Source: Thermoproteota archaeon
GTDB lineage: Archaea; Korarchaeota; Korarchaeia; B14-G2
DNA length: 64,000 nucleotides
Direction of reading: 5' to 3'
NCBI GenBank assembly: GCA_037917675.1
Contig: JAVCBW010000013.1
Span: forward strand, 25,578 to 89,577
Shown piece after piece: positions 2,322 through 55,853 of this stretch (positions are counted from its first letter, which is position 1; every line of letters begins with the position of its first letter). Both the position numbers and the translations under genes were made by a program. The notes under the pieces are model-generated. The model ran no database searches and was not told where the DNA came from. It saw nothing but the letters and a program-made list of their open reading frames with translations.

Positions 2322-2549
2322 CTATCTCGCTTGAAAGCCTCTTAGAGCTTAGCTTTTTAACATTTAGGGTCTAAATCTAGCTTCAACTGTAGCAATCGTC
2401 ATGGTGTCAGAGAGCTTTATAGCACTAGAAACGTAGTCTCAAGGTGATGGCTAAGATGATCCTAGCTTAAAGTTTAGGAGTGATTGCGTGAGAAGTGCTT
2501 AAAAAGGGGTGTAGGTGATGGAGCTGCAGGAGCCGCTCTGGTGTTTCAC

Positions 2550-5455: not shown

Positions 5456-5461
5456 TGAGCT

Positions 5462-31480: not shown

Positions 31481-34400
31481 GTGCCCTTGGATCAGGAAGT
31501 CGCCATATTCATTGAGAGTGTTAAGCAGAAGGATTTAGCTATCATGACACATGACATGTTCACGATTACCACATTAGCTGGTAAGGGGTTTAAGCTTCCT
31601 CATGCCTTCATCATAACAGATGTCGCATTCAAGCTGTTTCTCAAGGCCTCTGGGCTGTTAAAGCAATTCAATAACTTGGTTTCTAAGGCTGCTGATGGCA
31701 TGGACTTCGATGCTGAGCTAAAAGAGTTTTCAGAGAACCTCCTAAAATCAGAGATCCCCAGAGAGGTAGCTGAAGCCCTAAGAGAGGCTTACACTAAGCT
31801 TGGAAGCAGGTCAGGCTCCTTCCCACCTGCTACCTTTCTATATGCTTCAGTCTCAGTAGAGGGCTCTAGCATAACCCTAGGCTCTAGCAGATGGGCTGAG
31901 AAAATAGTGGTGAGCCCTGATGCTCTTCTAGAGGAAGTCAGAAAGATGTGGTCTAGAGTAGTATCTCAGGCAGTGATAGCTGAGCTAGCTAAGTCCAGTG
32001 GCACAGTAGATAAGTTTAAAGTCTCCATTTTTGCAGCCTGCATACCACCAGTCAAGGCGTCTGGGAGGTCAGAAGTCACTGACAACCAGATACTAGTCCA
32101 GTCGACACTAGGCCTCTATATGCCCATCCTAGACTTCATATCATTCGATGAGTTCATCATAGACAAGTCTTCTATGGTAGTTCTTGAGGAAAAGCTCTCA
32201 CCAAAGGAGAAAGCTCTCACCATCTATGGTGGTGTGCCAAGAGTGGAGAGTGTCCTCTCCACCCTGATCAATAGGCCCAGCCTGACGCCTGAAGAGGCTA
32301 TTGAAGCTGCTAACCTAGCATTAAGGTTAAGCGAGCTAGTTGGTAAGCCTGTATCTGTGGTATGGCTTCTCTCTGAGAGGCCGAAAGCACTATATGTACT
32401 TGCATATGAGGAGGTAGCCATGGGACATGAGATATTTGTGATCCCATTTGAGAAGCTCAGAAAGGAGGATTCTCGGTTAGCCGGTGGGAAGAACGCTAAC
32501 CTAGGTGAGCTGGCTGCAGCTGGCTTTCCTGTTCCACCAGGCTTTGCTATAACATCCAAGGCTTACGAGTACTTCTTAGAGAAGTCTAGTGTAAAAGAGA
32601 GGATAGCAAAGATGCTCGAGGAGACGCCTAGAGGAGCCGCTGCTCCTGAGGCATATCAGGAGGCATCTAAGAGGATAAGAGAAGTGGTAGAGGCTGCTGA
32701 AGTGCCTCCGGAGCTGAGGGATGCAATAGTCTTAGCCTACAGAGAGCTATGTAGGAGGCTTGGTAGGGAAGTCTATGTAGCCGTGAGGTCTTCTGCTACA
32801 GCAGAGGACTTGAGTACAGCTAGCTTCGCAGGGCAGCAGGAGACTTATCTCAACATCAGAGGGGAGGAAGAGCTGATAAGAGCTGTGAAGAAATGCTGGT
32901 CAAGCCTGTTTACAGCCAGAGCCATATTTTACAGAGAACAAAAGGGTTTTCCTCACGAGCAAGTTCTCATGGGAGTTGGAGTCCAGGAGATGGTCGATGC
33001 CAAGTCAGCTGGAGTCATGTTTACAATAGATCCTGTAACAGGTGACCCAACGAAGCTTGTCATAGAATCAAGCTGGGGGCTAGGCGAGTCTGTGGTGTCA
33101 GGTGAAGTAACTCCTGACTACTTTGTAGTGGACAAGAAAACCCTAAAGATACTCGAAAGAAAGACCTCCAGAAAGGAAAAGCAGAGAATAAGAGATCCAG
33201 AGACAGGCAGGACAGTTACTGTCGAGGTTCCAGACGAGAAGAAGGAGGCGCCTTCACTAACTGACGATGAAGTCAGAGAGCTAGCCCAGCTAGGCATCAA
33301 GATAGAGAAGCACTATGGGCAGCCACAGGATATCGAGTGGGCTATAGACAGGAACCGCCCATTTCCTCATAATGTAATGATACTGCAAGCCCGTCCAGAG
33401 ACTGTGTGGAGCGCTAAGCGTTTAGAGGAAGCTGAAAAGCCTCCAGAGAAGCCAGCTATAGAAGGCAGAGTAGTCGTGGTCAAGGGGCTTCCAGCATCTC
33501 CAGGAGTGCATACTGGAAGAGCTAAGGTAGCGCTTACAGTAGAGGAAGCCAGCAAAATAGTATCTAAAGGAGATATTCTCGTTACTAAAATGACCAATCC
33601 AGACTGGGTTCCATACATGAGGTTGGCTGGAGCCATAGTCACAGACGAGGGAGGCATGACATGTCATGCTGCCATAGTCAGCAGAGAGCTTGGAATCCCA
33701 TGCATAGTAGGCGCTGGTGACGCTACTCAGCTCCTAAAGACAGGGGAAGTCTATACAGTCGATGCATCAGCTGGCGTAGTATATGAGGGGGTAGTAGAGG
33801 AGGTTCTTGAGAAGCCTTCAGAAGAAGTAGCTCTACCACGGCTGCCAGCGGAAGCAGCTCCCATAACTGGAACCAAGATATACATGAACCTAGGAGCACC
33901 AGACATGATAGACAAGTACAAGAACCTACCATTTGATGGAATAGGCCTCATGAGAATAGAGTTCATCCTAGCATCCTACATAGGAGATCACCCGAACTAC
34001 CTGATTGAAATAGGTCATCCTGAGAAGTTTGTAGACAAGCTTGCTGACGGAATAACTAGGGTAGCTAGAGCAATATATCCCAGGCCTGTTGTAGTAAGGT
34101 TCTCAGACTTCAAGACAAACGAGTATCGGCAGTTGAAGGGTGGTGAGAAGTATGAGCCAGAGGAGAGCAACCCTATGCTAGGCTGGCGTGGAGCTTCAAG
34201 ATATATCTCTCCAGGATACGAGAAGGCATTTAGGCTAGAATGCAAGGCTATAAGGAAGGTTAGAGAGGAATATGGCCTTAAGAATGTCTGGGTAATGATT
34301 CCCTTCGTTAGGACAGTATGGGAGCTACAGAAGTGCCTTGAGATTATGGCAGAGGAGGGCCTGAGAAGAGGAAGAGACTTCAAAATATGGATCATGGCTG

Positions 34401-34819
34401 AAGTCCCGAGCATAATAATTCTAGCAGACGAGTTCAGCAAGTATGTAGATGGCTTCAGCATAGGCTCTAATGACCTAACTCAGCTTATCCTAGGTGTGGA
34501 TAGAGACTCCCAGATCTTACCTGAGATAGACTCCAGGTACTTTGATGAACGTGATCCAGCTGTCAAGAGAGCAATCCACCACCTCATTGAGGTAGCTCAC
34601 GAAAATGGCGTGACGGTCTCGATATGCGGCCAGGCTCCCTCAGTATACCCAGACTTTGTAGAGTTCCTCGTCCGCTGTGGGATAGATAGCATAAGCGTCA
34701 ACCCAGATGCTGTAATAGATACAAGGAGGCTTGTTGCTAGCATAGAGCAGAGGATACTCCTAGAGCAGGCAGTCAACTCAGCAAAGAGTAGAGCTAGACT
34801 GTTCAAAAAGCCCGCTTAG
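31481..34819 (+). CDS. ppsA: Phosphoenolpyruvate synthase with an extra, degenerate N-terminal nucleotide-binding domain
   Basis: From M314 (32420): GGKNANLGEL, AVRSSATAED, SFAGQQET, GGMTCHAAIVSRELG, NPMLGWRG, SIGSNDLTQ; the first 313 aa are a decayed copy of the ATP-grasp domain. Confidence 0.93.
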   Translation: MPLDQEVAIFIESVKQKDLAIMTHDMFTITTLAGKGFKLPHAFIITDVAFKLFLKASGLLKQFNNLVSKAADGMDFDAELKEFSENLLKSEIPREVAEALREAYTKLGSRSGSFPPATFLYASVSVEGSSITLGSSRWAEKIVVSPDALLEEVRKMWSRVVSQAVIAELAKSSGTVDKFKVSIFAACIPPVKASGRSEVTDNQILVQSTLGLYMPILDFISFDEFIIDKSSMVVLEEKLSPKEKALTIYGGVPRVESVLSTLINRPSLTPEEAIEAANLALRLSELVGKPVSVVWLLSERPKALYVLAYEEVAMGHEIFVIPFEKLRKEDSRLAGGKNANLGELAAAGFPVPPGFAITSKAYEYFLEKSSVKERIAKMLEETPRGAAAPEAYQEASKRIREVVEAAEVPPELRDAIVLAYRELCRRLGREVYVAVRSSATAEDLSTASFAGQQETYLNIRGEEELIRAVKKCWSSLFTARAIFYREQKGFPHEQVLMGVGVQEMVDAKSAGVMFTIDPVTGDPTKLVIESSWGLGESVVSGEVTPDYFVVDKKTLKILERKTSRKEKQRIRDPETGRTVTVEVPDEKKEAPSLTDDEVRELAQLGIKIEKHYGQPQDIEWAIDRNRPFPHNVMILQARPETVWSAKRLEEAEKPPEKPAIEGRVVVVKGLPASPGVHTGRAKVALTVEEASKIVSKGDILVTKMTNPDWVPYMRLAGAIVTDEGGMTCHAAIVSRELGIPCIVGAGDATQLLKTGEVYTVDASAGVVYEGVVEEVLEKPSEEVALPRLPAEAAPITGTKIYMNLGAPDMIDKYKNLPFDGIGLMRIEFILASYIGDHPNYLIEIGHPEKFVDKLADGITRVARAIYPRPVVVRFSDFKTNEYRQLKGGEKYEPEESNPMLGWRGASRYISPGYEKAFRLECKAIRKVREEYGLKNVWVMIPFVRTVWELQKCLEIMAEEGLRRGRDFKIWIMAEVPSIIILADEFSKYVDGFSIGSNDLTQLILGVDRDSQILPEIDSRYFDERDPAVKRAIHHLIEVAHENGVTVSICGQAPSVYPDFVEFLVRCGIDSISVNPDAVIDTRRLVASIEQRILLEQAVNSAKSRARLFKKPA

Positions 34820-40662: not shown

Positions 40663-41793
40663 TTGAAGAGGTTCATTCCAATTAACAGACCTATGTTAGG
40701 TGAAGAGGAGATACAGGAGGTCAGGAGAGTCATCAAGTCAGGTATACTCACATCATGGCATGGTAGTGGCCCGGTCACAGAGAAGTTTGAGGAGGCTTTT
40801 GCAGAGTACACTGGTGTAAAGCATGCGATAGCAGTCAGCTCAGGTACTGCAGCCCTGCAGGCTGCGCTTGCTGCACTAGATCTGAAGCCTGGCGACGAGG
40901 TTATAGTACCTCCTTTCAGTTTTGTCGCGACAGCAAACGCCGTGTTACTCCAAGGGGCTAAGCCTAAGTTCGTCGACATAGAGCCTAAGACAATGAATCT
41001 AGACCCAGAGAAGCTGAATGAAGCCATAGATGATAGAGTGAAGGCTATTATCCCAGTTCACGTCTATGGCCACCCTGCTGACATGAAGCCCATAATGGAG
41101 ATAGCTGAGGATAAGGGGATAGCTGTCATAGAGGATGCAGCTGAAGCTCATGGAGCAACATACATGGGAAAGAAAGCTGGTGCCATAGGCCACATAGCTG
41201 CCTTTAGCTTCTATGCTACCAAGAACATGACTACAGGAGGAGAGGGTGGGATGGTCACAACAGATGACGACGAGTTAGCGAGAAGAGCTCGCCTATATAG
41301 AGCTCACGGCCAAGAGGAAGCCTATCACATGGTAGCTCTCGGCACAAACTGCAGAATGATGGAGATAGCTGCCGCAATAGGCATAGTTCAGCTCAGAAAG
41401 CTAGAGTCGTTCATAGAAGCCAGAAGAAAGAACGCCCAGCAGCTGACAAGTCTTCTATCTTCCATAAGGGGCTTAGAGCATCCCAGCGAGGCCCCATATG
41501 TGAGACATGTCTATTACCTGTACACTGTTAAGGTCAAGGAAAGCTTCCCTCTAAGCAGAGACGAGCTTAGCAAGAGGCTACATGAAGCTGGCATAGGCAC
41601 ATCAGTAAGCTGGCCAACTCCAATACACCTGCAGCCATACTATAAGAAAGCTTTCGGGTACAGAGGTGGAGAGTATCCTGTGTCTGAGCAGGCTGCAAGA
41701 GAGGTGCTCTCTCTTCCCGTCCACCCTGCAGTCACGCGAGATGACATAAAGTTCATAGCTGAGACTATAAGAGAGCTAGCTAAGAGCTGCTAG
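40663..41793 (+). CDS. DegT/DnrJ/EryC1/StrS PLP-dependent aminotransferase
   Basis: AVSSGTAAL, IIPVHVYGHPADM, IEDAAEAHGA, FSFYATKNMTTGGEGGM. Confidence 0.95.
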   Translation: MKRFIPINRPMLGEEEIQEVRRVIKSGILTSWHGSGPVTEKFEEAFAEYTGVKHAIAVSSGTAALQAALAALDLKPGDEVIVPPFSFVATANAVLLQGAKPKFVDIEPKTMNLDPEKLNEAIDDRVKAIIPVHVYGHPADMKPIMEIAEDKGIAVIEDAAEAHGATYMGKKAGAIGHIAAFSFYATKNMTTGGEGGMVTTDDDELARRARLYRAHGQEEAYHMVALGTNCRMMEIAAAIGIVQLRKLESFIEARRKNAQQLTSLLSSIRGLEHPSEAPYVRHVYYLYTVKVKESFPLSRDELSKRLHEAGIGTSVSWPTPIHLQPYYKKAFGYRGGEYPVSEQAAREVLSLPVHPAVTRDDIKFIAETIRELAKSC

Positions 41794-43058
41794 AGCTCTT
41801 CAGCTAGCATTCTGATGATCTCCTCGTCGCTTCTGCTTTCTCCCTGTAGCTCCAGGAAAGGCCTAAGCGTGATCTCCTCCCAATCCATCCTAGTAGCTGT
41901 CCCCCCAGACTCTATTCCTCCAATTGCAGCTGGAAGAACAACTTCAGCAAATCTGGCAGTCAGTGTAAGCTGGTAGTCTATAGATATGATTCGGCTTTTC
42001 CTCAGCTGTGCTACAGCTTGCCTAGGCATGCTTGCCAGTGGGTCCGAGCCTATGACAAGCACGACATCAAACTCTCCTCTAGATAGCCTCCTGATAGCTA
42101 TCTGATCACTGAAATGGGGCTCTTCTTCAGAGAAATCTATGGCATAAGGATACCCTGTCGCCTTTAATGCCTGCTCTACTGCTCCAACCATATTATAGTG
42201 TCCAGACATAGGCATGGCAGTAGCCTTTATACCAGCACCATTAAGGGCATCAATCAGGTTATACAGCTCCTCTACACTATCTCTCCTTCCAGAGGAGTAT
42301 AAGCCGAGCCCATAGAAGACCACCACGTAAGTAGACTTCTTGAGGCTATCGATGAAGCTGTAAAACTCCTCCTCTGGCACCCCTACCTCAGAGAGCTTGC
42401 CTCTGGACCCTGTGAGCTCACCAGCTATCAACTTAGCAAGCATAGCGTCCTTACCAGGCTGCACTATAAGCCTGTGGTTAGCTATCCTCATTGTTCTCGT
42501 AGCTCTAACATCTATCACAGTAACAATCCTGCTCTCAACCCCCTCTGGTGTCCTTTCTCCTCTAGGGAAGACAGCAAACCTGCTGGCATGTCTATGATGG
42601 CTTTCTGCCGGGTTGCACCCCCAGTATATCACGTGGTCTGCCTTATCTAGTACCTCACTGAGCTTCGGGGGTCTGACTCCCTTCACCTTAGCATACCAAA
42701 TGGAGTAGCCATGGCAGACGGACATTGGACCATCAAAGAACCCGCTAATCGCTCCTGCTAGCTCAACTCCGGCTTTCACAGCCTCATTGGCGCTGTTACA
42801 CCACCCGTAGAGGAGAGGCCTCTTAGAATTCTTGAGCATTTCAGTAGCATGCTCAACCGCTGCCTCCAGGCTACAGCTCTTCCCACCTACCCGTGGACTG
42901 AGTACCCTCTCTGGTCCTAAAGCCGACTCCACTTTTTTAGCTCCAAGTGAGCAGGCATGAAGCACTCTCGCTATCTTGTTCCTCTCAAATTCAACGACAA
43001 TGTCATCACATAGCAGGGAACAGCCAGTACACACTACTTCAGCCTTCATCGCTGGCAC
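41790..43058 (-). CDS. fwdB: Formylmethanofuran dehydrogenase subunit B (Mo/W-pterin, Cys ligand)
   Basis: CTGCSLLCDDI...C, PLLYGW, SVCHG, YWGCNPAESHHRHASRF, MSGHYNMVG, GIESGGTATRMD. Confidence 0.9.
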   Translation of the reverse strand: MPAMKAEVVCTGCSLLCDDIVVEFERNKIARVLHACSLGAKKVESALGPERVLSPRVGGKSCSLEAAVEHATEMLKNSKRPLLYGWCNSANEAVKAGVELAGAISGFFDGPMSVCHGYSIWYAKVKGVRPPKLSEVLDKADHVIYWGCNPAESHHRHASRFAVFPRGERTPEGVESRIVTVIDVRATRTMRIANHRLIVQPGKDAMLAKLIAGELTGSRGKLSEVGVPEEEFYSFIDSLKKSTYVVVFYGLGLYSSGRRDSVEELYNLIDALNGAGIKATAMPMSGHYNMVGAVEQALKATGYPYAIDFSEEEPHFSDQIAIRRLSRGEFDVVLVIGSDPLASMPRQAVAQLRKSRIISIDYQLTLTARFAEVVLPAAIGGIESGGTATRMDWEEITLRPFLELQGESRSDEEIIRMLAEEL

Positions 43059-43514
43059 CTAGTATATCTCAATAGCCTTGCTGTAACAGTACTGCTCACA
43101 TAGCCTACAGTTTATCCTGTCTGGTGGAAACCTCCTACACTTCTCTAGGTTAATGATCTTGGCTACACCATTCTCAACCATGAACACTACCTCCCCTGAG
43201 CTAGCTCCTCTCCCTCTTGCTGTTCCAGAGTCAACTGAGGCATTAGCTGGACAGACTACAACACAGTTGCCGCATCCAGTGCACTTATCTTCATCTAGCT
43301 TGAGTCCAGTCTCATAGGCTTCCATCACAGGCTTAAGTAGCTCCCTCAGCTTAGCTAGGTTCTCAGCATACCTGTCTTCAAGCAGCAGAAGACAATCCTC
43401 AAGCTTCACTTCTCTGAGTATGAGCTTTGTTGCAAACGCCAAGCAAGTGTGCCCGCATTTCTTGCAGTTAGTCTTGGGTAGGAGCTTGTAGACGTCCAAA
43501 GGGCTTAGAGACAT
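43059..43514 (-). CDS. fwdG: FwdG-like ferredoxin fused to an N-terminal FeS domain of the CdhE N-terminal type
   Basis: LLPKTNCKKCG.TCLAFA...C, then CTGCGNCVVVCPAN and CRLCEQYC; abuts fwdB. Confidence 0.7.
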   Translation of the reverse strand: MSLSPLDVYKLLPKTNCKKCGHTCLAFATKLILREVKLEDCLLLLEDRYAENLAKLRELLKPVMEAYETGLKLDEDKCTGCGNCVVVCPANASVDSGTARGRGASSGEVVFMVENGVAKIINLEKCRRFPPDRINCRLCEQYCYSKAIEIY

Positions 43515-43574: not shown

Positions 43575-45953
43575 TTGCCGAAAGTCGGGAGCGATACCTC
43601 ACCGATACTTCTCTTCATATGCCACTGTGGCACTAATATAGCTGGCACCATCGATATAGACTACCTTATAAAGAGGTTTTCAGACGATGGGATAGCCTGC
43701 TTTGATGAGCTTCACCTGTGTAGCGACGAGGGGCTAAGAAGCCTCAGGGAGAAGATAGCTGAGATAAAGCCTTCGAGAGTAGTCATAGCAGCATGTACAG
43801 AATACCTGCATGGAGAGCTTTTCAAGAAGACTGTCGAGGAGGCTGGCTTAAATAGCAGCTACCTTGCATTCGCAAACATTAGGGAGCAGTGCAGCTGGGT
43901 ACACTGGAGAGAGAAGGAGAAGGCTACTCTGAAGGCTGAAGATCTCATAAGGATGGCTATAGCATATGCTAAGCTATCTAAGAAGTCGAGGAAGCGTGAG
44001 ATAAATGTTGTAAGGAGGGCCCTCGTGATAGGCGGGGGTATCGCTGGGATAACAGCTGCACTGAAGCTTGCTGACTCAGGCATCGAGGTTGTGCTAGTTG
44101 AAAGAGAGGGCTTTATAGGAGGACACATGGCAAAGTGGGATAAGCTATTTCCAACATTTGATTGCAGCATATGCATTCTAGGCCCACTGATGTCCAGAGT
44201 AGCAAGCCATCCTAGTATCAAGCTCTACACCCTAAGCGAGGTCACATCTATAGAAGGCTCTCCAGGGAGATTTAAGGCTAGGATCAAGAGGAAGCCACGG
44301 TATATAGATCCAGAGAAGTGCAATGGATGCAACAGATGCATTGAAATATGTCCAGTTGAGGTTCTAAGCGAATACGAGTACCTGCTAGCAAAGAGGAAAG
44401 CTATCGTGAAGCCCTTCCCAGAAGCAGTCCCCATAGCTCCATATATAGATATAGAGAACTGCATAGGATGTAGGTCATGTATTGGTGTGTGTGAAAAGGA
44501 GGCTATAGACTTCAATGACATGGAAACTGAGCTAGAGGAGGAGGTTGGTGCAGTGATAGTGGCTACCGGGTTCAAGCCATTTGATCCAGCAAAGCTCGGA
44601 GAATATGGCTACGGGAAGTATCTCGATGTTATAACAGCACCAGAGCTGGAGAGGATGCTTAATCCTCTAGGTCCAACTGGAGGCGTTCTAAGGAAGATAT
44701 CTTCAGGTGAAAAGCCTAAGGTGGTATGTTTCATCCAGTGTGTGGGAAGCCGCTCTAGGAGAGAGAGTGAGCACCCCTACTGTAGCAGAGTGTGCTGCAT
44801 GTACGCGCTGAAGGAGGCAATGCAGATTAAAATGCAGAGCTCAGATACAGACGTCTACATCCTCTACATCGATCTGAGGGCTTTTGGAAAGGGATACGAG
44901 GAGCTATATGAGCAGGCAGCCAAGAGCGGAGTGAGGTTTATAAGGGGGAGAGCTTCGGCAGTGCTGAAGGACGAGGATAGCGGAAAGCTGATAGTGAGAG
45001 CTGAGGACACACTAAGCGGAAACCCCATAGAGCTGAAAGCTGACCTCATCGTGCTGAGTGTAGGACTTGAGCCACCTTCTGGAAGCACTAAGCTAGCTAG
45101 GCTCTTAGGGATACCGACAGATGAGAACGGATTCATGATGGAAGCTCACCCGAAGCTTCGCCCATCAGACTCGCCTGCATCAGGAATATTCCTAGCTGGG
45201 ACAGCACAGGGGCCAAAGGACATAGCTGACACAGTTGCTCATTCTGGGCTAGCTGCAGCTGGATGCCTAGCTTTCCTATCTTCAGAGAAGCTCATAATGG
45301 AGGTTACAGCTCCGGAGATAGATCCAGAGAAGTGCTTAGGGTGCTTCGTATGCGCCAGGATTGCATGTAGCTTCAGTGCGATAAGGAAGAAGAGAGACAG
45401 AGTGGTGGTAGACGAGCTGGCATGCAAGGGCTGTGGAGCTTGCGCGACAGTATGCCCAGCTAGAGCAATAAGCACTCCTGAGATCAGCGACGAGCAGGTC
45501 TACGCGATGATAGATGCTGTAACACAGAGGCCATCTGAGACTCCTCTCATAATAGGATTTGCATGCAAGTGGTGTGGATATGCTGCAGCAGACAATGCTG
45601 GAGTAAGGAGGATAGGCTACCCCACAAATGTCAGGCTGATAAAGGTTCCCTGCTCATCTAGAGTAGACCCACTTTTTGCCCTCTACGCTCTAATGAAGGG
45701 AGCTGATGGAGTCATCATAGTAGGGTGCAGGGAGGCAGACTGCCACTACATCTCAGGCTTCAGGAAAGCGAGAGAAAACGTCAGAAGGCTTAAAGAGCTC
45801 CTTAAGACAGTAGGCATCAGCGAGCAGCGGGTTGTAATAGAGAGTGTATCAACATCAGAGGGAGAGAAGTTAGCCAGAGTTCTAAGGGACTTCACAGCAA
45901 AGATATCCGAGATAGGGTCCATAGGAGCCGAATTCAAGGAGAAGGGGGTGTAA
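43575..45953 (+). CDS. hdrA: Second HdrA-MvhD fusion
   Basis: FICHCGTNIAG, GGGIAG, DKLFPTFDCSICIL, QCVGSR...CSRVCC, GPKDI; C-terminal FACKWCGYAAAD...VPCSSRV...GCREADCHY. Confidence 0.92.
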   Translation: MPKVGSDTSPILLFICHCGTNIAGTIDIDYLIKRFSDDGIACFDELHLCSDEGLRSLREKIAEIKPSRVVIAACTEYLHGELFKKTVEEAGLNSSYLAFANIREQCSWVHWREKEKATLKAEDLIRMAIAYAKLSKKSRKREINVVRRALVIGGGIAGITAALKLADSGIEVVLVEREGFIGGHMAKWDKLFPTFDCSICILGPLMSRVASHPSIKLYTLSEVTSIEGSPGRFKARIKRKPRYIDPEKCNGCNRCIEICPVEVLSEYEYLLAKRKAIVKPFPEAVPIAPYIDIENCIGCRSCIGVCEKEAIDFNDMETELEEEVGAVIVATGFKPFDPAKLGEYGYGKYLDVITAPELERMLNPLGPTGGVLRKISSGEKPKVVCFIQCVGSRSRRESEHPYCSRVCCMYALKEAMQIKMQSSDTDVYILYIDLRAFGKGYEELYEQAAKSGVRFIRGRASAVLKDEDSGKLIVRAEDTLSGNPIELKADLIVLSVGLEPPSGSTKLARLLGIPTDENGFMMEAHPKLRPSDSPASGIFLAGTAQGPKDIADTVAHSGLAAAGCLAFLSSEKLIMEVTAPEIDPEKCLGCFVCARIACSFSAIRKKRDRVVVDELACKGCGACATVCPARAISTPEISDEQVYAMIDAVTQRPSETPLIIGFACKWCGYAAADNAGVRRIGYPTNVRLIKVPCSSRVDPLFALYALMKGADGVIIVGCREADCHYISGFRKARENVRRLKELLKTVGISEQRVVIESVSTSEGEKLARVLRDFTAKISEIGSIGAEFKEKGV

Positions 45954-47674: not shown

Positions 47675-47825
47675 ACTCTAAGCTATAGCCTCCTCCATCT
47701 TTAAACCTTACGTCTTGCCAAGAAAGCATAGGCGACATGCTTCAGAAAACTGCTATTAACATGCTTGCTTACAACCCAAAGGTTAAATAAGCTAGCTGGG
47801 GCGGATGCCACATGGTGTGACTTCC

Positions 47826-50171
47826 ATGTCTAAGAGAGCACTACATGTTAAGCTGAAGAAGCTTGAAGCTCCAAGCGCTGTCATCGAGGGATTAGAACTC
47901 GGAATTGGTAGGATATTCGAGGAGGAATGGGAGGAGCCACTTGGCCCCACACCATTTCCCTCTATGATAGAGCTGAGAGAGTGGGACATGAAGCTACTCA
48001 AGAGATACAAGCCCTTCTATATGCCATTCTGTGACGTATGCTGCCTCTGTACATTCGGGAAATGTGACCTCACGAAGGGCAAGCGTGGGGCATGTGGCCT
48101 AAACATGGCAGCTCAGCAGTCGAGGATAGTCCTCCTAGCATGCTGCATAGGAGCTGCAACACACTTAGGCCACGCTAAACACCTGATAGAGCACCTGATA
48201 GAGAAGTATGGAAGAGATCACCCGATTGACGTCGGTGGTGAGCGTGTCTACATAGAGGCTCCTGTGACTAGGCTCGTAACAGGAGTCAGACCAAAGACTC
48301 TAGGAGACCTAGAGGACATATGTGAGTACCTAGCTGGAGAAGTCGTACACCTTCTGTCCTGCTGCCACACTGGGATGGAAGGAGACAACCTAGACTTCGA
48401 GTCAAAAGTACTGCATGCAGGGATGATAGACCAAGTTGCGATGGAGCTAGCAGACATAGCACAGATATCAGCACTAGGATTCCCGAAAGCAGATCCAGAA
48501 GCTCCGCTAGTAGACCTGGGAGCCGGCATAGTGGACATAGAGAAGCCTACGATACTCGTCATAGGTCACAATGTCCCACCTGCAGCAGCCATAATGGACT
48601 ACCTTGTAGCTAACAACCTCTATGGCCAAGTCGAGGTAGCTGGAATCTGCTGCACAGCACACGATGTGGTCAGATATAACCCAGGAGCCAAAATAATAGG
48701 TCCAATATCATGGCAGCTAAGGTTTGTCAGAAGTGGCATAGCTGACGTGGTAGTCGTAGACGAGCAGTGTATCAGAACAGACATACTAGTTGAAGCCCAG
48801 AAGGTCAAGGCTCCACTAATAGCTACCTCAGAAAAGGTCTGCTACGGACTAAGAGATAGGACACACGACAACCCAGATGAGATCGTTGAAGACCTTCTAA
48901 CAGGACGTGAACCTGGTGCACTCATCCTTGACCCAGATAAGGCTGCTGAAGTAGCTGTTAAGGTGGCAGTGAAGATAGCTCCTGAGAGGAGAAAGTTCAA
49001 AGTGATACCAGACATAGCTGGTGTAATAGAGGAAGCTAAGAAGTGCACTCAGTGCAAGACCTGTGCGAGAGTGTGCCCAGCTGAGCTAGACATCCCTGCT
49101 GCAATGGCTAAAGCTAAAGAGGGAGATGTATCAGCCCTATCAGCACTCTACGAATACTGCGTAGGCTGTGGTAGATGTGAGAATGCATGTCCACAGGGAC
49201 TAAAGCCACACAGCTACATAGTTGCTGCGGCAGAAAGGGAGATGAAAGCTGAGAGATTCAAAGTAAGAGCTGGGAGAGGCGCAATCGGAGACACGGAGAT
49301 AAGGAACGTAGGCAGCCCGATAGTGCTAGGCGAGATACCTGGCGTGGTAGCTCTAGTAGGCTGTGCAAACTATGCTAATGGAGGAAGGGAGCTAGCTGAG
49401 GTAGCCGAGGAGTTTGCTAGAAGAAGGTATATAGTTGTTGCATCAGGCTGCGCAGCCATGACCATAGGAATGATGAAAGATGAAGAGGGTAAAACTATAT
49501 ACGAAAAGTATCCTGGAGTCTTTGATGCTGGGGGAGTTGTAAACGTGGGGTCATGTGTATCCAACGCACATATAGCTGGTGCAGCTATAAAGATCGCCAG
49601 CATATTCGCGAAGCGTAACCTTAGAGCGAACTACGAGGAGATAGCTGACTATATCCTGAACAGAGTAGGTGCAGTAGGAGTAGCTTGGGGAGCCTTCTCT
49701 CAGAAGGCTGCCTCTATAGCAGCTGGATTCTGGAGACTTGGCGTCCCAGTCATAGTAGGCCCACATGGACTCAAATATAGGAGGCTTCTTCTAGGGAGGC
49801 AAGATCGTGAGGAAGACTGGTATGTATATGATGCTAGGACAGGCAGGAAGGTGTATGTGGGCCCAGCACCAGAACACCTTTTCTACGCAGCTGAAAGCAA
49901 GGATGAGCTAATGGTGATGGTACCGAAGCTCTGCATGAGGCCGAATGATACCACAAAGGGCAGGATGATCAAGCTGACACACTACATAGACCTATACAAG
50001 AGGATATATGGGACACTTCCACCAGACCTACATCTCTTTGTAAGAAGAGTAGCTGACATACCAATTACGATAAAGGAGGAGGTCCTCGAGTTCTTAAAGG
50101 AGAAAGGGTGGAAAGAGATGGAAATACCTGACCCAACACTCCTGCCTAGGCTGATACGTAAAAAGGAGTGA
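47826..50171 (+). CDS. cdhA: CO dehydrogenase/acetyl-CoA synthase alpha subunit
   Basis: EPLGPTPFP, CDVCCLCTFGKCDL, IGHNVPP, GICCTAHD, VVDEQC, two ferredoxin motifs, GSCVSNAH, RPNDTTKGR. Confidence 0.97.
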   Translation: MSKRALHVKLKKLEAPSAVIEGLELGIGRIFEEEWEEPLGPTPFPSMIELREWDMKLLKRYKPFYMPFCDVCCLCTFGKCDLTKGKRGACGLNMAAQQSRIVLLACCIGAATHLGHAKHLIEHLIEKYGRDHPIDVGGERVYIEAPVTRLVTGVRPKTLGDLEDICEYLAGEVVHLLSCCHTGMEGDNLDFESKVLHAGMIDQVAMELADIAQISALGFPKADPEAPLVDLGAGIVDIEKPTILVIGHNVPPAAAIMDYLVANNLYGQVEVAGICCTAHDVVRYNPGAKIIGPISWQLRFVRSGIADVVVVDEQCIRTDILVEAQKVKAPLIATSEKVCYGLRDRTHDNPDEIVEDLLTGREPGALILDPDKAAEVAVKVAVKIAPERRKFKVIPDIAGVIEEAKKCTQCKTCARVCPAELDIPAAMAKAKEGDVSALSALYEYCVGCGRCENACPQGLKPHSYIVAAAEREMKAERFKVRAGRGAIGDTEIRNVGSPIVLGEIPGVVALVGCANYANGGRELAEVAEEFARRRYIVVASGCAAMTIGMMKDEEGKTIYEKYPGVFDAGGVVNVGSCVSNAHIAGAAIKIASIFAKRNLRANYEEIADYILNRVGAVGVAWGAFSQKAASIAAGFWRLGVPVIVGPHGLKYRRLLLGRQDREEDWYVYDARTGRKVYVGPAPEHLFYAAESKDELMVMVPKLCMRPNDTTKGRMIKLTHYIDLYKRIYGTLPPDLHLFVRRVADIPITIKEEVLEFLKEKGWKEMEIPDPTLLPRLIRKKE

Positions 50172-50177
50172 TGTTGG

Positions 50178-50720
50178 GTGGTTATCATGTCTCTGACACG
50201 CTCTTGGATGATAGCTGAGATACCTGGCCCGACTAGAGCTAACGTCATAACTAAGCCTGAGATAGTGGTGGCGCTAATAAGAAGGCACAAAAGGCCTCTT
50301 TTAGTTGTGGGAAGCAGGATAGCCACCGATGTAGGTGAAGAGTCGATGGCAGACTACGTGATAAGGCTTGCAAAGGCAGCTAACATACCCATACTAGCTT
50401 CCCTCCCTGCCCTCAGAGTTCTACGTGAAAAGGGGTTTGAGCCGATAGCAGCTATGCCACTAGCAGACATAGGAGCAAGGCTTGTTGACCCCAGCTGGCA
50501 GGGTGTAGACGGTAAGGGCCCACATGACCTGCTACTGGTCCTGGGATTCAGGTACTATGAGCAGTGGCTCCTCCTCTCTGGAGTAAAGCACTTCTCAGAT
50601 ACGACGCTTATTAGCCTCGACTACAGGTATCAACCTCATGCTAAATGGTCTTTTCTCAATATCTCCCTGGAGGACTGGAAGAAAAACTTAAAAGCCATCA
50701 TCGAGAAGCTTAGCAGCTGA
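50178..50720 (+). CDS. cdhB: ACDS epsilon subunit
   Basis: AEIPGP, KRPLLVVG, DPSWQGVDGKGPHDL, YQPHAKWSF. Confidence 0.93.
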   Translation: MVIMSLTRSWMIAEIPGPTRANVITKPEIVVALIRRHKRPLLVVGSRIATDVGEESMADYVIRLAKAANIPILASLPALRVLREKGFEPIAAMPLADIGARLVDPSWQGVDGKGPHDLLLVLGFRYYEQWLLLSGVKHFSDTTLISLDYRYQPHAKWSFLNISLEDWKKNLKAIIEKLSS

Positions 50721-50743: not shown

Positions 50744-52210
50744 GTGTCGGCAGAAGGATTCCCAGTGGATATAGGCGTCATATATGAGGGAGAGCGTATA
50801 AGGAAGCATGAGATGTATGCTGAGTGGGGTGGGGTTAAACAGAGGTACAAGTTCGAGCTGGTTCGTGTCAGGTCTATAGAGGAAGTCGAAGATGGCAAAG
50901 TTCAGGTTATAGGGCCTGACATAAAGGATCTACCAGAGGGGGCTGCAGCTCAGCCTCTGGGCATACTGGTTGAGGTAGCTGGAAAGCAGCTCAAAGAGGA
51001 GATGGAAGGTGTCATAGAGAGGAGGATACACGATTTCTGCAATTACATCGAAGGGTTCATGCACTTAAATCAGAGATATGACATCTGGCTTAGATTAAGC
51101 AAGAAGTCATTTAAGAAAGGCCTCGACTCATTCACCTGGATTGGAAAAGCGCTATGCAAGCTGTTTAAGAGTGAGCTGCCGATAATCGAGAAGATACAGG
51201 TCACGTTCATAACAGACCTAGAGAAGGTCAAGGAGATGTTTGACAATGCGCTCAAGGTATATGAAGCTAGAGACGCTAGAGTAAGGGGGTTAAAGGACGA
51301 GGAAGTAGACGCATTCTATGGCTGCACACTATGCCAGTCATTTGCTCCAACACATGTCTGCGTCATAACTCCACAGAGATACTCGAACTGTGGTGCTATA
51401 AGCTGGCTTGACGCCAGGATAGCAGCCCAAATAGACCCTAAAGGTCCATTGTTCAGGATGGATAAGGGAGAGTGCCTAGACCCTATGCTAGGAGAGTGGA
51501 GTGGAGTGAATAAGACAGTGAAGGAAAAGTCTCTTGGAGAGGTGACACGTGTATGCTTGTATTCAGCGTTCACATACCCTCATACATCCTGCGGTTGCTT
51601 TGAGTGTGCAGCATTCTACGTACCTGAAGTAGATGGGCTCGGGATAGTCCACAGAGGGTTCGCTGGAAATACGGTGATAGGGCTCCCATTTACGACCATA
51701 GCTGACTCAACAGCTGGAGGAAGGCAAGTCCCTGGCTTCCACGGCTTAAGCTTCGAGTACATGAGGTCACCAAAGTTCCTTCAAGCTGACGGAGGCTGGG
51801 AGAGAGTTGTATGGATGCCATCAGAAGCTAAGGAAAGAGTAAAGGGGTTCGTACCAGATGAGCTATTAGATAAGATAGCTACAGAAAAGGATGTCTCAAA
51901 TGTAGAAGAGCTCAAGGAGTGGCTCAAGGAGAAAGGCCACCCAGTAGTTGCAAGATGGAAGGAAGAGGCTATAGAAGAGAAGAAGCCTCCTGAGGAAGCT
52001 GCCCCTGCTGCTCCCCCAACCGCAATACCTGGAGTTCCAGTAATCACAGCTCCACAAGCTGCTGCAGTCCCCACAGCAGGAGGCTATCAGCTTGTGCTTA
52101 ACCTACCAGCGCCAGCTGCAGGAGGGCCAACCTACAAGATAATACTAAAGGATGTCAAGATCATAGCAAAGAAAATGATCTTAAGGAAGATAGCAGAGGA
52201 GAAGAAATAG
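50744..52210 (+). CDS. cdhC: ACDS beta subunit (acetyl-CoA synthase)
   Basis: YEGERIRK, FYGCTLCQSFAPTHVC, PHTSCGCFE, SPKFLQADGGWERVVWMP; Pro/Ala-rich linker and basic C-terminal strand. Confidence 0.97.
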   Translation: MSAEGFPVDIGVIYEGERIRKHEMYAEWGGVKQRYKFELVRVRSIEEVEDGKVQVIGPDIKDLPEGAAAQPLGILVEVAGKQLKEEMEGVIERRIHDFCNYIEGFMHLNQRYDIWLRLSKKSFKKGLDSFTWIGKALCKLFKSELPIIEKIQVTFITDLEKVKEMFDNALKVYEARDARVRGLKDEEVDAFYGCTLCQSFAPTHVCVITPQRYSNCGAISWLDARIAAQIDPKGPLFRMDKGECLDPMLGEWSGVNKTVKEKSLGEVTRVCLYSAFTYPHTSCGCFECAAFYVPEVDGLGIVHRGFAGNTVIGLPFTTIADSTAGGRQVPGFHGLSFEYMRSPKFLQADGGWERVVWMPSEAKERVKGFVPDELLDKIATEKDVSNVEELKEWLKEKGHPVVARWKEEAIEEKKPPEEAAPAAPPTAIPGVPVITAPQAAAVPTAGGYQLVLNLPAPAAGGPTYKIILKDVKIIAKKMILRKIAEEKK

Positions 52211-52224
52211 AAGCAGGTGATCTG

Positions 52225-52353
52225 GTGGCCGAGGAGCCTCCTCAGGAAGCTGCTGAGCTCTTCGCAAAGTTCCTAGAGCTTGTAAAGAAGTTCGGGTACC
52301 TCGAGCTTGAGAATGTCAGGATAGAGGCAGAAGAACTCGAGCTTGAAGTCTAG
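52225..52353 (+). CDS. 42-aa small protein in the cdh operon (MAEEPPQEAAELFAKFLELVKKFGYLELENVRIEAEELELEV)
   Basis: GTG start with AGGTGA RBS; fills the cdhC-cdhD gap; similar to the CdhD N-terminal peptide. Confidence 0.75.
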   Translation: MAEEPPQEAAELFAKFLELVKKFGYLELENVRIEAEELELEV

Positions 52354-52364
52354 CAGGTGCTAAT

Positions 52365-53588
52365 ATGCCAGGAGATGAGGGCTTATCAATCAACATAGGG
52401 AGCAAACTGGCTAGATACCTAGAGCAGTATGGTGAGATAGAGCTTGAGGACGTTGCAATACAGCTAGAGCACCTAGAGCTCCAAGTCTTGCCTGGAGCTC
52501 CTCCCAGAGCAGTAGTAGCTGCTCCGCCAGTTGTCCCAGCGAAGCCAAAGCCTACTAAGCTCATAGAGGTGGAGTTCAAGCCTCCTGTATATGAGTATGT
52601 GCTGCCAATCCAGGAGGTTACCATAGGTGCTACTAGAGCTGAGGGAGGGACTAGAGCCTACTCACTGACGGTAGGCGGAGAAAAGGCTCCACCCTTCTAC
52701 CTGTTTGAGTCCCCTCCCCCTCACAAGCCTGTGATAGCATGCGACGTATTCGACTGGAAGGTCCCCTTAGCTAAGGCTGTCAAGCAGCATGTTAAGGAAG
52801 TGTATGGCGATCCTGTAGCATGGGCTAAGCTTGCTGTCGAGAAGTTTGGAGCAGAGCTCATAACACTACACCTCATAAGCATAGATCCACTGATCAAAGA
52901 CACGCCGCCAAAGGAGGCAGCTAAAACAGTAGAGGAAGTGCTACAGGCGGTAGATGTCCCCCTGATAGTTGGTGGCTGTGGAGACCCAAAGAAGGATACT
53001 AAAGTATTTGAGAAGGTGGCTGAGGTAGCTGAAGGTGAGAGAATAGTTATAAACTCCATGACAAAGGAGATGCTTGAATATGATACCAAGAGGAATGTTG
53101 ATACCATAATCAAGCATAATCATGTCACCATAGCATTCACTCCCATGGATATGAACCTTGCAAGGGAGCTTAATAGGAGATTGACATCAGAAGGTGTCCC
53201 AAGGAGCTCAATAATCATGGATACAACTACAGCAGCTCTAGGCTATGGCATAGAATACGCTTTCACGATAATGCAAAGATCTAGGCTAGCAGGTTTAATG
53301 GGTGATGAGGAGCTAGCATTCCCTATCTCCTCTGGGACAACCAACGCCTGGGCTGCTAGAGAAGCCTGGCTGAAGCAACTTGATGCAGTATGGGGTCCTA
53401 GGGAGCTAAGAGGTCCAATCTGGGAGACGATAACAGCTCTCACTCTACTGATAGCTGGCGTAGACCTCTTTATGATGATGCATCCTGCTGCAATGAAAAC
53501 TGTAAGAGACGTGATAGACGAGCTCATACAGGGAATGGGGAGAGCAAAGCCGGAGCTCATTGAAAACTGGGTTTCAGCCAGGATGTGA
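52365..53588 (+). CDS. cdhD: ACDS delta subunit (CFeSP small subunit)
   Basis: EVTIGATRAEGGTR, GGEKAPPFY, GGCGDPKKD, AALGYGIEY, NAWAAREAW, MMMHPAA. Confidence 0.96.
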   Translation: MPGDEGLSINIGSKLARYLEQYGEIELEDVAIQLEHLELQVLPGAPPRAVVAAPPVVPAKPKPTKLIEVEFKPPVYEYVLPIQEVTIGATRAEGGTRAYSLTVGGEKAPPFYLFESPPPHKPVIACDVFDWKVPLAKAVKQHVKEVYGDPVAWAKLAVEKFGAELITLHLISIDPLIKDTPPKEAAKTVEEVLQAVDVPLIVGGCGDPKKDTKVFEKVAEVAEGERIVINSMTKEMLEYDTKRNVDTIIKHNHVTIAFTPMDMNLARELNRRLTSEGVPRSSIIMDTTTAALGYGIEYAFTIMQRSRLAGLMGDEELAFPISSGTTNAWAAREAWLKQLDAVWGPRELRGPIWETITALTLLIAGVDLFMMMHPAAMKTVRDVIDELIQGMGRAKPELIENWVSARM

Positions 53589-53598
53589 GGTGGCCTAT

Positions 53599-55017
53599 AT
53601 GCCCAGGAAGGAGCTTAGCCCAATAGACATATACAATCTCCTACCTAGAACAAACTGCAAGGAGTGTGGTGAAGAAAACTGCATGGCTTTTGCTGCCAAG
53701 CTGGCTACACATGAAGCAAAGCTAGAGCAATGCACGCCACTGCTAACAGACCCCAGATATAAGGAAAGCTACAAGAATCTCTGGGATATGCTCAAGCCAC
53801 CAGTCAAGGAGGTGATAATCGGGGTAGGAGACAGAGCTATCAAAGTTGGTGGAGAATACGTGATGTATAGGCATGAGCTCACATACTATAATCCAACAGC
53901 CATAGCCATAGATGTGACAGATGACATGTCAAGTGAGGAGGTCTTAAAGAGGGTGGAGTATGTAGAGAACTTCGTATATACTTATATAGGAATAGATCTA
54001 AGGCTGAACGCCATCGCAGTTAGGTGTGTTTCAGGAGATCCGAAGCAGTTTGCTGATGCAGTCAGGAAGGTGACAGATAAGACCAGCCTCCCACTGATCC
54101 TATGCAGTTTAGACCCAAAGTGCATGGAGGAAGCTCTTAAGGTAGCTGGCAGCAAGAGGCCTCTGATATATGCTGCAAACAAGAGTAACTGGAGAGATAT
54201 GGCTGAGCTTGCCCTCAGATACAAGTGCCCTCTCGCAGTATTTTCACCAAATGACTTAAAGACCCTCAGATCTCTCTCTAAGACTCTCCTGGAGTATGGT
54301 GTAGAGGACCTAATGCTAGACCCCGGCACATTCCCTGGAGAGGGCCTAGCTGACACATGGAACAACTTCGTTATGCTGAGAAGGCTGGCTTGCAAGGAGG
54401 AAGATGAGCTTTTAGGATTCCCTCTGATAGGTGTGCCGCTCACTTCTTGGCTAGTAGACCCATCTGAGCCAGAGACTATAAAGCAGTGGAGAGAAGCCTA
54501 CATAGCTGGGATGCTGATCTCACTATTTGCTGACTTGCTGATTATGCACAGCATAGAAGGCTGGGTTCTACTACCTAACGTGATCCTCAGGCAGAACATT
54601 TACACTGATCCAAGGAAGCCTGTTGCAATTGAGCCTGGCTTAAGGACGTTTGGTAGCCCAGATGAGACGTCTCCTGTCCTGTTAACCTCAAACTTTGCGC
54701 TCACATATTACACTGTAGCTGCTGACATCGAAGCAAGCAAGAAAGACTGCTATCTACTGGTGGCAGACACAGAGGGCCTAGCTGTAGAGTGTGCTGTAGC
54801 AGGGAGGAAGCTCACAGCTGAGGGTATAGCTGACGTGGTAAAGTCGTCTGGGATAGAGCAAAAGGTCAAGCACAGGAAGCTCATAATACCTGGAAGGGCA
54901 GCTAGGCTTAAGGGAGAGATAGAAGATGCTACAGGGTGGGATGTGATGGTAGGCCCACTAGACTCCTCTGGGATACCAAAGTTTCTAGCTGACAACTGGC
55001 CTCCTAGGAACCTCTAG
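53599..55017 (+). CDS. cdhE: ACDS gamma subunit (CFeSP large subunit)
   Basis: LPRTNCKECGEENCMAFA, YRHELTY, RQNIYTDPRKP, NFALTYYTV, VGPLDSSGI; ATG 53599 with GAGGTG RBS. Confidence 0.96.
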   Translation: MPRKELSPIDIYNLLPRTNCKECGEENCMAFAAKLATHEAKLEQCTPLLTDPRYKESYKNLWDMLKPPVKEVIIGVGDRAIKVGGEYVMYRHELTYYNPTAIAIDVTDDMSSEEVLKRVEYVENFVYTYIGIDLRLNAIAVRCVSGDPKQFADAVRKVTDKTSLPLILCSLDPKCMEEALKVAGSKRPLIYAANKSNWRDMAELALRYKCPLAVFSPNDLKTLRSLSKTLLEYGVEDLMLDPGTFPGEGLADTWNNFVMLRRLACKEEDELLGFPLIGVPLTSWLVDPSEPETIKQWREAYIAGMLISLFADLLIMHSIEGWVLLPNVILRQNIYTDPRKPVAIEPGLRTFGSPDETSPVLLTSNFALTYYTVAADIEASKKDCYLLVADTEGLAVECAVAGRKLTAEGIADVVKSSGIEQKVKHRKLIIPGRAARLKGEIEDATGWDVMVGPLDSSGIPKFLADNWPPRNL

Positions 55018-55853
55018 GAGACACCGAGTAGCTCAAGTAGCGTGGTATCAGGTACAAGCCCTATCCTTCCTGCTATTCTTCTTGCAGCAACTACTGAAGG
55101 GCTCTCTGGTGGTAGCTCAAGCAGTGGCTTCCCCTCTAGGTTAAAGATTGCTATGTTAGGGTCTCTAGGGATCACGCCACCGTATTTCACACCGATCTCA
55201 TGAGCCTTTCTCCTTACGATGTTCTCTAGCTCTCTTGGGAACATGTTACCTATCAGATACAGTTCCTTAACGTCAATATGGACCTCCTCGGTGATCTCTC
55301 TGATCCTCTTCGCCGTCTCAAACCCCATCTTAGATGGATCTGTCACAATAAGCATGATATCGACATCTCGATCTGTTCTTCTGCTGAGGTGCTCTAGCCC
55401 TGCTTCCATGTCCATCAACGTGATCTTATAGTTTGAGGTCAGCTTATCAAGTATCCTTGTCAGCAAGCTGTTGACAAAGCAGTAGCATCCCTCTCCCTCA
55501 GTCCTTCCCATAGCTAGCAAATCAAAATCATCTCCCTCAACGAGAGTTTCGAAAATCCAGGACTCAAGCAAATCTCCTTTAGAAACTCCGGGAGGAAGCT
55601 TATCCATCTCAATACTCCTCTTAAGCTTGGTAGCTACATCACCTACGGTTTTAGGCACCTCTACACCTAGTACATCAGGTAGGTTTGTAGCTGGGTCAGC
55701 GTCAACAACCAGGATAGGCCCCTCTCTCTTCTCGAGCAGCACCTTAAGTATAAGCGCTGTCACAGCTGTCTTTCCAACACCACCCTTACCCGAAACTGAC
55801 ACGACTATGTTGCTCAAGTCCTCACCTAACTTCTCGCAGTTCGACGCGTACAC
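55014..55853 (-). CDS. cooC: CODH/ACS nickel-insertion ATPase CooC/AcsF
   Basis: SGKGGVGKT, VDADP, EGEGCYCFVN, DMEAGLEHLSR; true start probably slightly downstream. Confidence 0.92.
   Translation of the reverse strand: MYASNCEKLGEDLSNIVVSVSGKGGVGKTAVTALILKVLLEKREGPILVVDADPATNLPDVLGVEVPKTVGDVATKLKRSIEMDKLPPGVSKGDLLESWIFETLVEGDDFDLLAMGRTEGEGCYCFVNSLLTRILDKLTSNYKITLMDMEAGLEHLSRRTDRDVDIMLIVTDPSKMGFETAKRIREITEEVHIDVKELYLIGNMFPRELENIVRRKAHEIGVKYGGVIPRDPNIAIFNLEGKPLLELPPESPSVVAARRIAGRIGLVPDTTLLELLGVS

Follow-up and report, generated by a model that had tools for sequence, protein, structure and literature searches.

The cdh operon and its surroundings

The window, which is the whole 64,000-nt stretch of DNA that was analysed, contains a complete cdh operon on its plus strand. 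The operon comprises cdhA (CODH alpha, 47805..50171, TIGR00314), cdhB (CODH epsilon, 50178..50720, TIGR00315 and PF02552), cdhC (ACS beta subunit, 50744..52210, PF03598, PF19436 and TIGR00316), cdhD (CoFeSP small subunit, 52365..53588, TIGR00381, NF003375 and PF03599) and cdhE (CoFeSP large subunit, 53599..55017, NF003195), and all five genes exceed the curated Pfam and NCBIfam cut-offs. The ATG of cdhE at 53599 is preceded by GAGGTGG, the NF003195 match begins at residue 17 of a TTG-started ORF, and the TTG at 53560 chosen by the ORF finder is probably too early a start. An HdrA2-like gene and a polyferredoxin gene are located upstream of the operon.

Two HdrA2-type genes are present in the 64-kb window, at 2484-4982 (+) and 43575-45953 (+). 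The first has hdrC and hdrB downstream (4979-6343), while a second hdrBC pair lies upstream on the opposite strand (884-2321). The other HdrA2 gene is followed by the polyferredoxin gene and then directly by the cdh operon. Together with fwd, mer and cofE, the HdrA2 genes point to an archaeon with the H4MPT-type Wood-Ljungdahl pathway. Adjoining fwdB (41790-43058), a gene at 43059-43514 (−) encodes a 151-aa protein whose first ~70 residues correspond to the N-terminal Fe-S domain of CdhE (NF003195 positions 1-68, E 6.5e-19; PF04060) and precede a 4Fe-4S ferredoxin domain; the protein may be the window's second example of part of an ACDS subunit encoded on its own. In the PEP synthase ORF at 31481-34819 (+), 1112 aa long, the family match begins at residue 318, so that either the protein has an N-terminal extension of ~317 aa or the start was called too far upstream.

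A small ORF between cdhC and cdhD

The 154-nt gap between cdhC and cdhD holds a small ORF (52225..52353, plus strand) with a GTG start, 42 codons and a TAG stop. The predicted product is a protein of 42 aa and ~4.9 kDa, with a pI of 4.2 and a charge of −8.5. A Shine-Dalgarno sequence, AGGTGAT (52215..52221), is found 3-4 nt upstream of the GTG; its AGGTGA part (52215-52220) ends 4 nt from the start codon and the next T completes the heptamer. The Shine-Dalgarno sequence of cdhD, AGGTG (52355..52359), is located 5 nt upstream of the ATG. The arrangement of AGCAGGTG followed by 5 nt and a start codon is identical at the small ORF and at cdhD, and similar Shine-Dalgarno sequences precede the starts of the other cdh genes. 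The original prediction of a GTG ORF with its own AGGTGA ribosome-binding site between these two genes was therefore correct, and the peptide quoted there is contained in the translation.

The small ORF is separated from cdhC by 14 nt and from cdhD by 11 nt. Its reading frame differs from the frames of both neighbours; it cannot therefore be an extension of one of them produced by read-through, and fusion to either was rejected on the same ground. Rfam and tRNA scans gave no match in the small-ORF region. An antisense ORF of 102 aa (52316-52624, minus strand) covers the last part of the small ORF and the first part of cdhD; it is probably spurious, since antisense frames at this place contain stops in one or both of the two species compared below.

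Homology of the small ORF to the N-terminal head of CdhD

A profile HMM of 33 columns was built from the CdhD N-termini (hereafter heads) of 73 other genomes, with the sequences of the window excluded, and was run against all 1195 stop-to-stop pieces of the window of at least 25 aa in six frames. Only two of the 1195 pieces matched: the CdhD N-terminus (E 1.8e-10, at residues 19-50 of its stop-to-stop piece) and the small ORF (E 5.1e-6), the next best piece having an E-value of 4.1. BLASTP comparison of the small ORF with the CdhD N-terminus of the window revealed 14 identities over 30 residues (E 2e-5). The ORF had been predicted to parallel the CdhD N-terminus closely, and both this comparison and the HMM of 73 foreign heads bear this out.

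In a MAFFT alignment of the small ORF with 35 heads no gaps fell inside the ORF, and its end coincided with the exact boundary where CdhD passes into a Pro/Ala linker. Over full length, identity to any head is at most 38%. The head of the cdhD from the same operon is 41-47% identical to the ORF over 29-30 aa, that of locus L049 58% over 26 aa and that of locus L040 38% over 42 aa; these identities span ~30 residues, too few to tell the resident cdhD from a foreign one as the source.

The search against NCBIfam gave as sole matches the N-termini of two CdhD models, NF003378 (positions 4-33, E 0.015) and NF003375 (positions 6-35, E 0.062); no Pfam or NCBIfam family was matched at E ≤0.01. The small ORF was scanned along with its relative P0006 (see below) and five heads. 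Each of these seven peptides had at most two NCBIfam matches, and six of the seven matched NF003378/NF003375 alone, at the same positions as the small ORF. The scores of the small ORF against the two CdhD models are 12-14 bits, compared with cut-offs of 488 and 634.

Because of the HMM, BLASTP and NCBIfam matches and the gapless alignment, we regard the small ORF as a stand-alone paralogue of the CdhD head. It matches the head in the HMM (E 5.1e-6), in BLASTP (E 2e-5), and in NF003378 and NF003375, and has neither the TIM-barrel body nor the Pro/Ala linker of a CdhD, nor a score above the family cut-off. As judged from its sequence, it is a paralogue of one element of CdhD and not a CdhD.

Other searches returned little. 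The protein word-index search recovered, at near lengths, the small ORF alone and missed the known relative P0006; at longer lengths it found no relative among 54 candidates. A search of the ESM Atlas for look-alikes of the small ORF gave no usable match, and Foldseek comparison of its model with the PDB gave 0 matches. When full-length CdhD was used to search the PDB by sequence, four sequences were retrieved; all matches begin at query residue 82 or later and hence cover no head. The head profile found nothing below E 0.65 among PDB sequences.

Coding status and selection

When 1.84 billion representative proteins were searched exhaustively with HMMER, two matches to the small-ORF protein reached E ≤0.001. 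One, P0007, is an 858-aa repeat protein; its match was rejected as a summed-repeat artefact and not a relative. The other, P0006, is 42 aa long and 80% identical to the small-ORF protein (E 9.6e-12). It had been supposed that normal gene callers miss this ORF. That part of the prediction failed: an identical protein (P0005) and the relative P0006 are already present in predicted-protein collections and therefore have been called by at least one gene caller.

P0006 is encoded by a Thermoproteota MAG, hereafter L001, whose CdhD is identical to that of the window at 376 of 407 positions (92%). The gene is an intact 42-codon ORF between cdhC and cdhD with a GTG start and a Shine-Dalgarno sequence (TAGGTGG, 4 nt from the GTG) placed as in the window. 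Between the two genomes, 34 of 42 amino acids and 100 of 126 nucleotides of the small ORF are identical, and there is no indel. The 26 nucleotide differences are distributed over codon positions 1, 2 and 3 as 7, 2 and 17. Seventeen differences are synonymous (over 28.0 sites) and nine are non-synonymous (over 98.0 sites), an excess of synonymous changes with a binomial P of 3e-6. The resulting dN/dS of 0.079 compares with 0.034-0.083 for cdhA-E; dS of the operon genes is 0.68-1.16. The frame of the small ORF is the sole stop-free frame of six. When 26 changes were placed randomly, an open ORF with at most eight amino-acid changes was obtained in one of 20000 trials.

Interruption or lack of conservation in relatives had been named as what would speak against a gene here; in the sole close relative found, L001, the ORF is intact and under purifying selection. 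The cdh operon has a genuine sixth gene here, protein-coding and specific to the lineage; that the small ORF is a real, selected paralogue of the CdhD head is very probable.

In L001 (4984-5000), the stop codon of the small ORF shares bases with an ATG that is in frame with cdhD (TAATG). This ATG is located 12 nt upstream of the ATG that aligns with the cdhD start of the window. The arrangement suggests termination-reinitiation coupling or, in L001, a CdhD that is four residues longer.

Distribution of the small ORF among cdhD loci

A scan with a CdhD alignment, covering one genome per prokaryotic species, confirmed 507 relatives, and the best 80 loci were used for further analysis. Apart from L001, the CdhD relatives among these best 80 of 507 are at most 66% identical to the CdhD of the window and belong, where named, to Bathyarchaeia. 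When the head HMM was run on six-frame translations of the best 80 of the 507 loci, one head was found in 77 and two in L001; no head was found in L020, which is masked, or in L035, which is truncated, and both were left unjudged. The small ORF is narrowly distributed: among the judgeable loci of the best 80 of 507, a second head is present in L001 alone.

The end of cdhC and the start of cdhD could both be located in 75 of the best 80 of 507 loci. In 71 of these 75 the two genes abut, with gaps of −62 to +18 nt. The L001 gap is 136 nt and contains the small ORF; the remaining outliers are L069, L048 and L061. The wide gaps of L048 and L061 proved to be artefacts of the first-start rule. At L069 (4806-5040) head and body are in different frames, separated by a 1-nt indel in the linker of a single MAG. 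The head of L069 was rejected as a separate gene, the split being a 1-nt frameshift; the indel may be a sequencing error or mark a pseudogene, which mimics a free head.

That the small ORF is a decayed leftover of a partial duplication, an ORF open by chance, or one half of a two-headed CdhD made by frameshifting is hardly credible, even though the region resembles a tandem repeat of the 5′ end of cdhD and the frame of cdhD has no stop from 52347 on, a position that precedes the final sense base of the ORF by 4 nt. An intact, indel-free ORF at a dS of ~1 with strong purifying selection largely refutes a remnant or chance origin. As to frameshifting, the frame of the ORF differs from those of cdhC and cdhD, no slippery heptamer is seen by eye in the 4-nt overlap, and the one split head found elsewhere, that of L069, results from a simple 1-nt frameshift seen in one MAG.

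Another possibility is that the ORF is a leader, in which the act of translation couples or controls cdhD and the peptide itself is irrelevant. The short gaps to cdhC and cdhD and the TAATG of L001, which links the end of the ORF to an ATG in frame with cdhD, would fit. A freely varying peptide is, however, not what is observed: purifying selection acts on the encoded amino acids (dN/dS 0.079, codon positions 7/2/17). In addition, cdhD owns a Shine-Dalgarno sequence, and elsewhere cdhC is coupled directly to cdhD (71 of 75 loci among the best 80 of 507). We consider a leader function very improbable.

Predicted structure and charge of the two heads

An AF2 monomer model of the small-ORF protein, built with the MAFFT head alignment, contains a helix at residues 7-23 (mean pLDDT 83.4). 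The acidic element YLELENVRIEAEELELEV follows the helix and is without regular secondary structure in the model. In CdhD of the window, the head motif occupies residues 13-44 (52401-52496), the Pro/Ala linker starts at residue 45 and the TIM-barrel body at about residue 76. The AF2 model of full-length CdhD has a short helix at residues 13-22 and pLDDT below 50 at residues 1-11 and 18-114.

The net charge is −8.5 for the small ORF, −6.4 for the CdhD head and +5.8 for the last 30 aa of CdhC. The basic tail of CdhC consists of its last ~30 residues (52118-52207) and comes after a Pro/Ala-rich linker; both translations show the linkers that the original prediction described next to the tail of CdhC and the head of CdhD. 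The tail is very conserved and amphipathic, its motif being anchored in 76 of 76 CdhC sequences. Within the N-terminal 45 residues of CdhA a basic stretch gives way to an acidic one. The CdhC C-terminus had also been proposed to echo the ORF with opposite charge. The opposite charge was confirmed (+5.8 versus −8.5 and −6.4) and the echo was not: BLASTP of the CdhC tail gave an E-value of 7.2, and the best correlation of the hydrophobicity profiles of tail and head (r 0.71) was equalled in 219 of 2000 column permutations. Since the echo is not significant, charge is the one feature that speaks for a pairing with CdhC.

These charges bear on the idea that the peptide is an assembly chaperone, an acidic shield that covers the sticky basic and hydrophobic CdhC tail until docking and does not stay as a permanent subunit. 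Its gene is directly downstream of cdhC, the charges are opposite (+5.8 for the tail, −8.5 for the ORF), and all 76 CdhC sequences have the strongly conserved, amphipathic tail. Against this, 77 of the 78 judgeable loci (best 80 of 507) have the same tail and no such peptide, and the sequence complementarity to the tail is limited to charge. A chaperone is unlikely.

The helix segments of the heads were scored with a PSSM. The two free copies reached 3.5 and 12.1 bits and both resident CdhD heads, from the window and from L001, −9.7 bits; the lowest of 72 reference heads scored 2.2 bits and their median was 31.2 bits, a range that is flattered because the reference sequences contributed to the profile. 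The resident helix of this clade has Arg, Tyr and Gln instead of the usual Leu and Phe. It reads SKLARYLEQY in the window (52401-52430) and SKLVRYLEQY in L001 (5031-5060), and both score below all 72 other heads. The resident segment is unusually degenerate and that of the free copy closer to the canonical form. The comparison hints that the free copy and the resident head may have divided the roles of the ancestral head after duplication.

The divergence could also be read as a sign that the protein is real and has a role unrelated to ACDS, the operon being merely its birthplace. The peptide is far from all heads, none exceeding 38% identity over full length, and its score on the head profile is near the bottom of the range. 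On the other hand, place, orientation and operon coupling are kept in both species, and the hydrophobic and acidic pattern of the head is retained, which makes an unrelated role improbable.

Relation to the published CdhD N-terminal region

ACDS is a complex of five subunits and ~2 MDa whose cohesion was an open question until a 2026 preprint implicated disordered termini, chiefly the CdhD N-terminal region (Zimmer et al., bioRxiv 2026, PMC13370988). According to the part of that preprint available to us, CoFeSP of M. acetivorans forms hexa- to octamers via the CdhD N-terminal region, which serves as the scaffold of the ACDS supercomplex, and the disordered CdhA N-terminus and CdhC C-terminus are proposed to dock on it. 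The construct tested there was M. acetivorans CdhD 43-88, which contains a Leu-zipper helix at residues 45-68; AlphaFold runs on the three termini gave structure for this helix alone (PMC13370988).

The linker and body of the CdhD of the window (residues 45-406) correspond to positions 79-441 of the 442 positions of NF003375, and the small ORF to positions 6-35. CdhD of the window type thus has ~34 fewer residues where the tested helix would lie and seems to be without a Leu-zipper helix 45-68. Because the ORF aligns with NF003375 positions 6-35 and the linker begins at position 79, the copied element appears to differ from the tested segment 43-88; it appears to be N-terminal of the tested helix and another stretch of CdhD's N-terminal region. 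By profile position the small ORF is not homologous to the M. acetivorans helix 45-68, a mapping that is indirect in that it was made through NF003375 and not with the M. acetivorans sequence itself. An F-G-Y likeness noticed by eye between the end of the preprint helix and the end of the small-ORF helix was dropped, as the profile places the ORF upstream.

In the available part of the preprint, the CdhD N-terminal region as a hub is thus already published for segment 43-88 (PMC13370988); for the head element we infer such a role. Full-text literature searching retrieved no paper that describes a small ORF between cdhC and cdhD or a CdhD head standing free.

Possible origin and role of the small ORF

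The small ORF could have arisen by tandem duplication of the cdhC/cdhD junction (stop, Shine-Dalgarno sequence and start) together with the first ~45 codons of cdhD, in a common ancestor of the window organism and L001. The product would be a free head without the Pro/Ala linker or the TIM-barrel body, consisting of an amphipathic helix and an acidic element in which hydrophobic residues and Glu alternate. We propose that, in the flexible centre of ACDS, it would engage in the contacts of the tethered head of CdhD; its partners would be other heads, the basic CdhC C-terminal tail together with the basic N-terminal stretch of CdhA, or both. Head positions occupied by the free copy would bring no CoFeSP module. 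The peptide would then be a small structural filler or adaptor that sets the number of CoFeSP, ACS and CODH modules tied together.

The ORF lies between cdhC and cdhD in both the window and L001, the place expected of an ACDS subunit. Being embedded between these two genes with a strong Shine-Dalgarno sequence, it should be made in subunit-like amounts, and a stoichiometric part therefore fits better than a separately regulated switch. As the ORF is absent at the other judgeable loci, it would be a clade-specific subunit, if a subunit at all. It is plausible from the sequences that the head motif is a docking or oligomerising element, and the "hub subunit or stoichiometry regulator" of the original prediction may describe the micro-protein.

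Several observations count against a role in ACDS or against the proposed contacts. Two genomes of uncultured archaea carry the ORF, and 77 of the 78 judgeable loci (best 80 of 507) have one head. The segment shown to oligomerise in M. acetivorans appears to be another one than the copied element. The head has low confidence in the AF2 model of full-length CdhD, and the acidic element of the ORF is unstructured in the monomer model. Strongly acidic peptides would also repel one another in the absence of basic partners. Co-folding of three copies of CdhD(1-55) with three copies of the small ORF, run without controls, scored 0.00 (mark 0.32) and speaks neither for binding nor against it. Overall, we lean slightly towards the complete reading, in which the selected free head would be a small sixth part of ACDS.

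The same homology and charge evidence is compatible with a decoy, or dominant-negative, peptide: a free head that competes with the tethered heads for their partners and loosens or shrinks ACDS. The peptide has the head and nothing to tether, a pattern known among eukaryotic microProteins. The gene is, however, tightly packed and co-transcribed between two structural genes and has a strong Shine-Dalgarno sequence. Since co-transcription makes the peptide whenever the complex is made, this would be an odd design for an inhibitor, and we consider a decoy rather unlikely.

A broader version of the sixth-subunit reading is that the extreme N-terminal head, and not the Methanosarcina-type helix 45-68, is a general docking module of archaeal ACDS whose partners are the basic tail of CdhC and the N-terminus of CdhA, and that in this Thermoproteota clade it has become a free sixth subunit, with the acidic heads, tethered and free, doubled relative to the basic CdhC and CdhA termini. 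Drawn from sequence comparison, this generalization is doubtful, and we put it forward tentatively.

Comparison with known systems

The closest known relative of the ORF is the archaeal CdhD N-terminal region itself. The ORF is homologous to the extreme N-terminal element conserved in TIGR00381, NF003375 and NF003378, and shares with it the operon and the acidic character; the parent element precedes the Pro/Ala linker. The ORF differs in being a separate polypeptide, without linker and without TIM barrel.

MicroProteins, of which LITTLE ZIPPER of plants and the Id proteins of animals are examples, are small proteins that duplicate the interaction domain of a larger one and stand alone. These are regulators of eukaryotic transcription factors, are separately regulated and form non-productive dimers. 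The small ORF is likewise small (42 aa), homologous to an interaction part of a multi-domain protein and devoid of the working domains, keeping the head only, where the head is the presumed interaction element. It differs in that it lies inside the operon of its presumed target, and a titration role could be proposed only by analogy.

The cooC gene belongs to the P-loop ATPase family. The cdh operons of M. acetivorans are described as cdhA, cdhB, cdhC, cooC and cdhD in the part of the source available (bioRxiv 10.1101/2022.07.20.500911). Like the small ORF, cooC is an extra gene in the cdhC-cdhD gap; its sequence is unrelated. In the window, a P-loop ATPase of the CbiA/MinD/ParA type (55014-55853, minus strand) is encoded convergently with cdhE and is possibly a CooC-like nickel-insertion factor.

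The small-ORF product would join the few small archaeal proteins for which an action on central metabolic complexes has been proposed, namely MtrR on the Mtr complex of methanogens (FEBS J 2026, PMC13370731) and sP26 on glutamine synthetase (bioRxiv 2020). Like the small-ORF product they are archaeal, shorter than 100 aa and proposed to bind a central metabolic enzyme. Unlike it, in the available parts of these two sources they are not reported as paralogues of pieces of their targets, and ACDS is not their subject; in the available text of the MtrR paper ACDS occurs in the abbreviation list and the introduction alone (PMC13370731). The segment tested for ACDS itself (CdhD 43-88, with helix 45-68; PMC13370988, in the part available) appears to lie downstream of the element carried by the ORF and is seemingly missing from CdhD of the window type.

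Implications

If the head is a general docking element, the organism provides a natural experiment on the wiring of a 2-MDa complex. A free, selected copy of this other conserved N-terminal element of CdhD would be a ready 42-aa probe of its binding partners. Even if the peptide is inactive in ACDS, its gene of 42 codons illustrates cleanly how coding status can be demonstrated from two genomes alone. The small ORF may represent a prokaryotic micro-protein that arose from the interaction tip of the protein encoded next to it in the operon, and a possible sixth ACDS subunit in a lineage with the archaeal Wood-Ljungdahl pathway.
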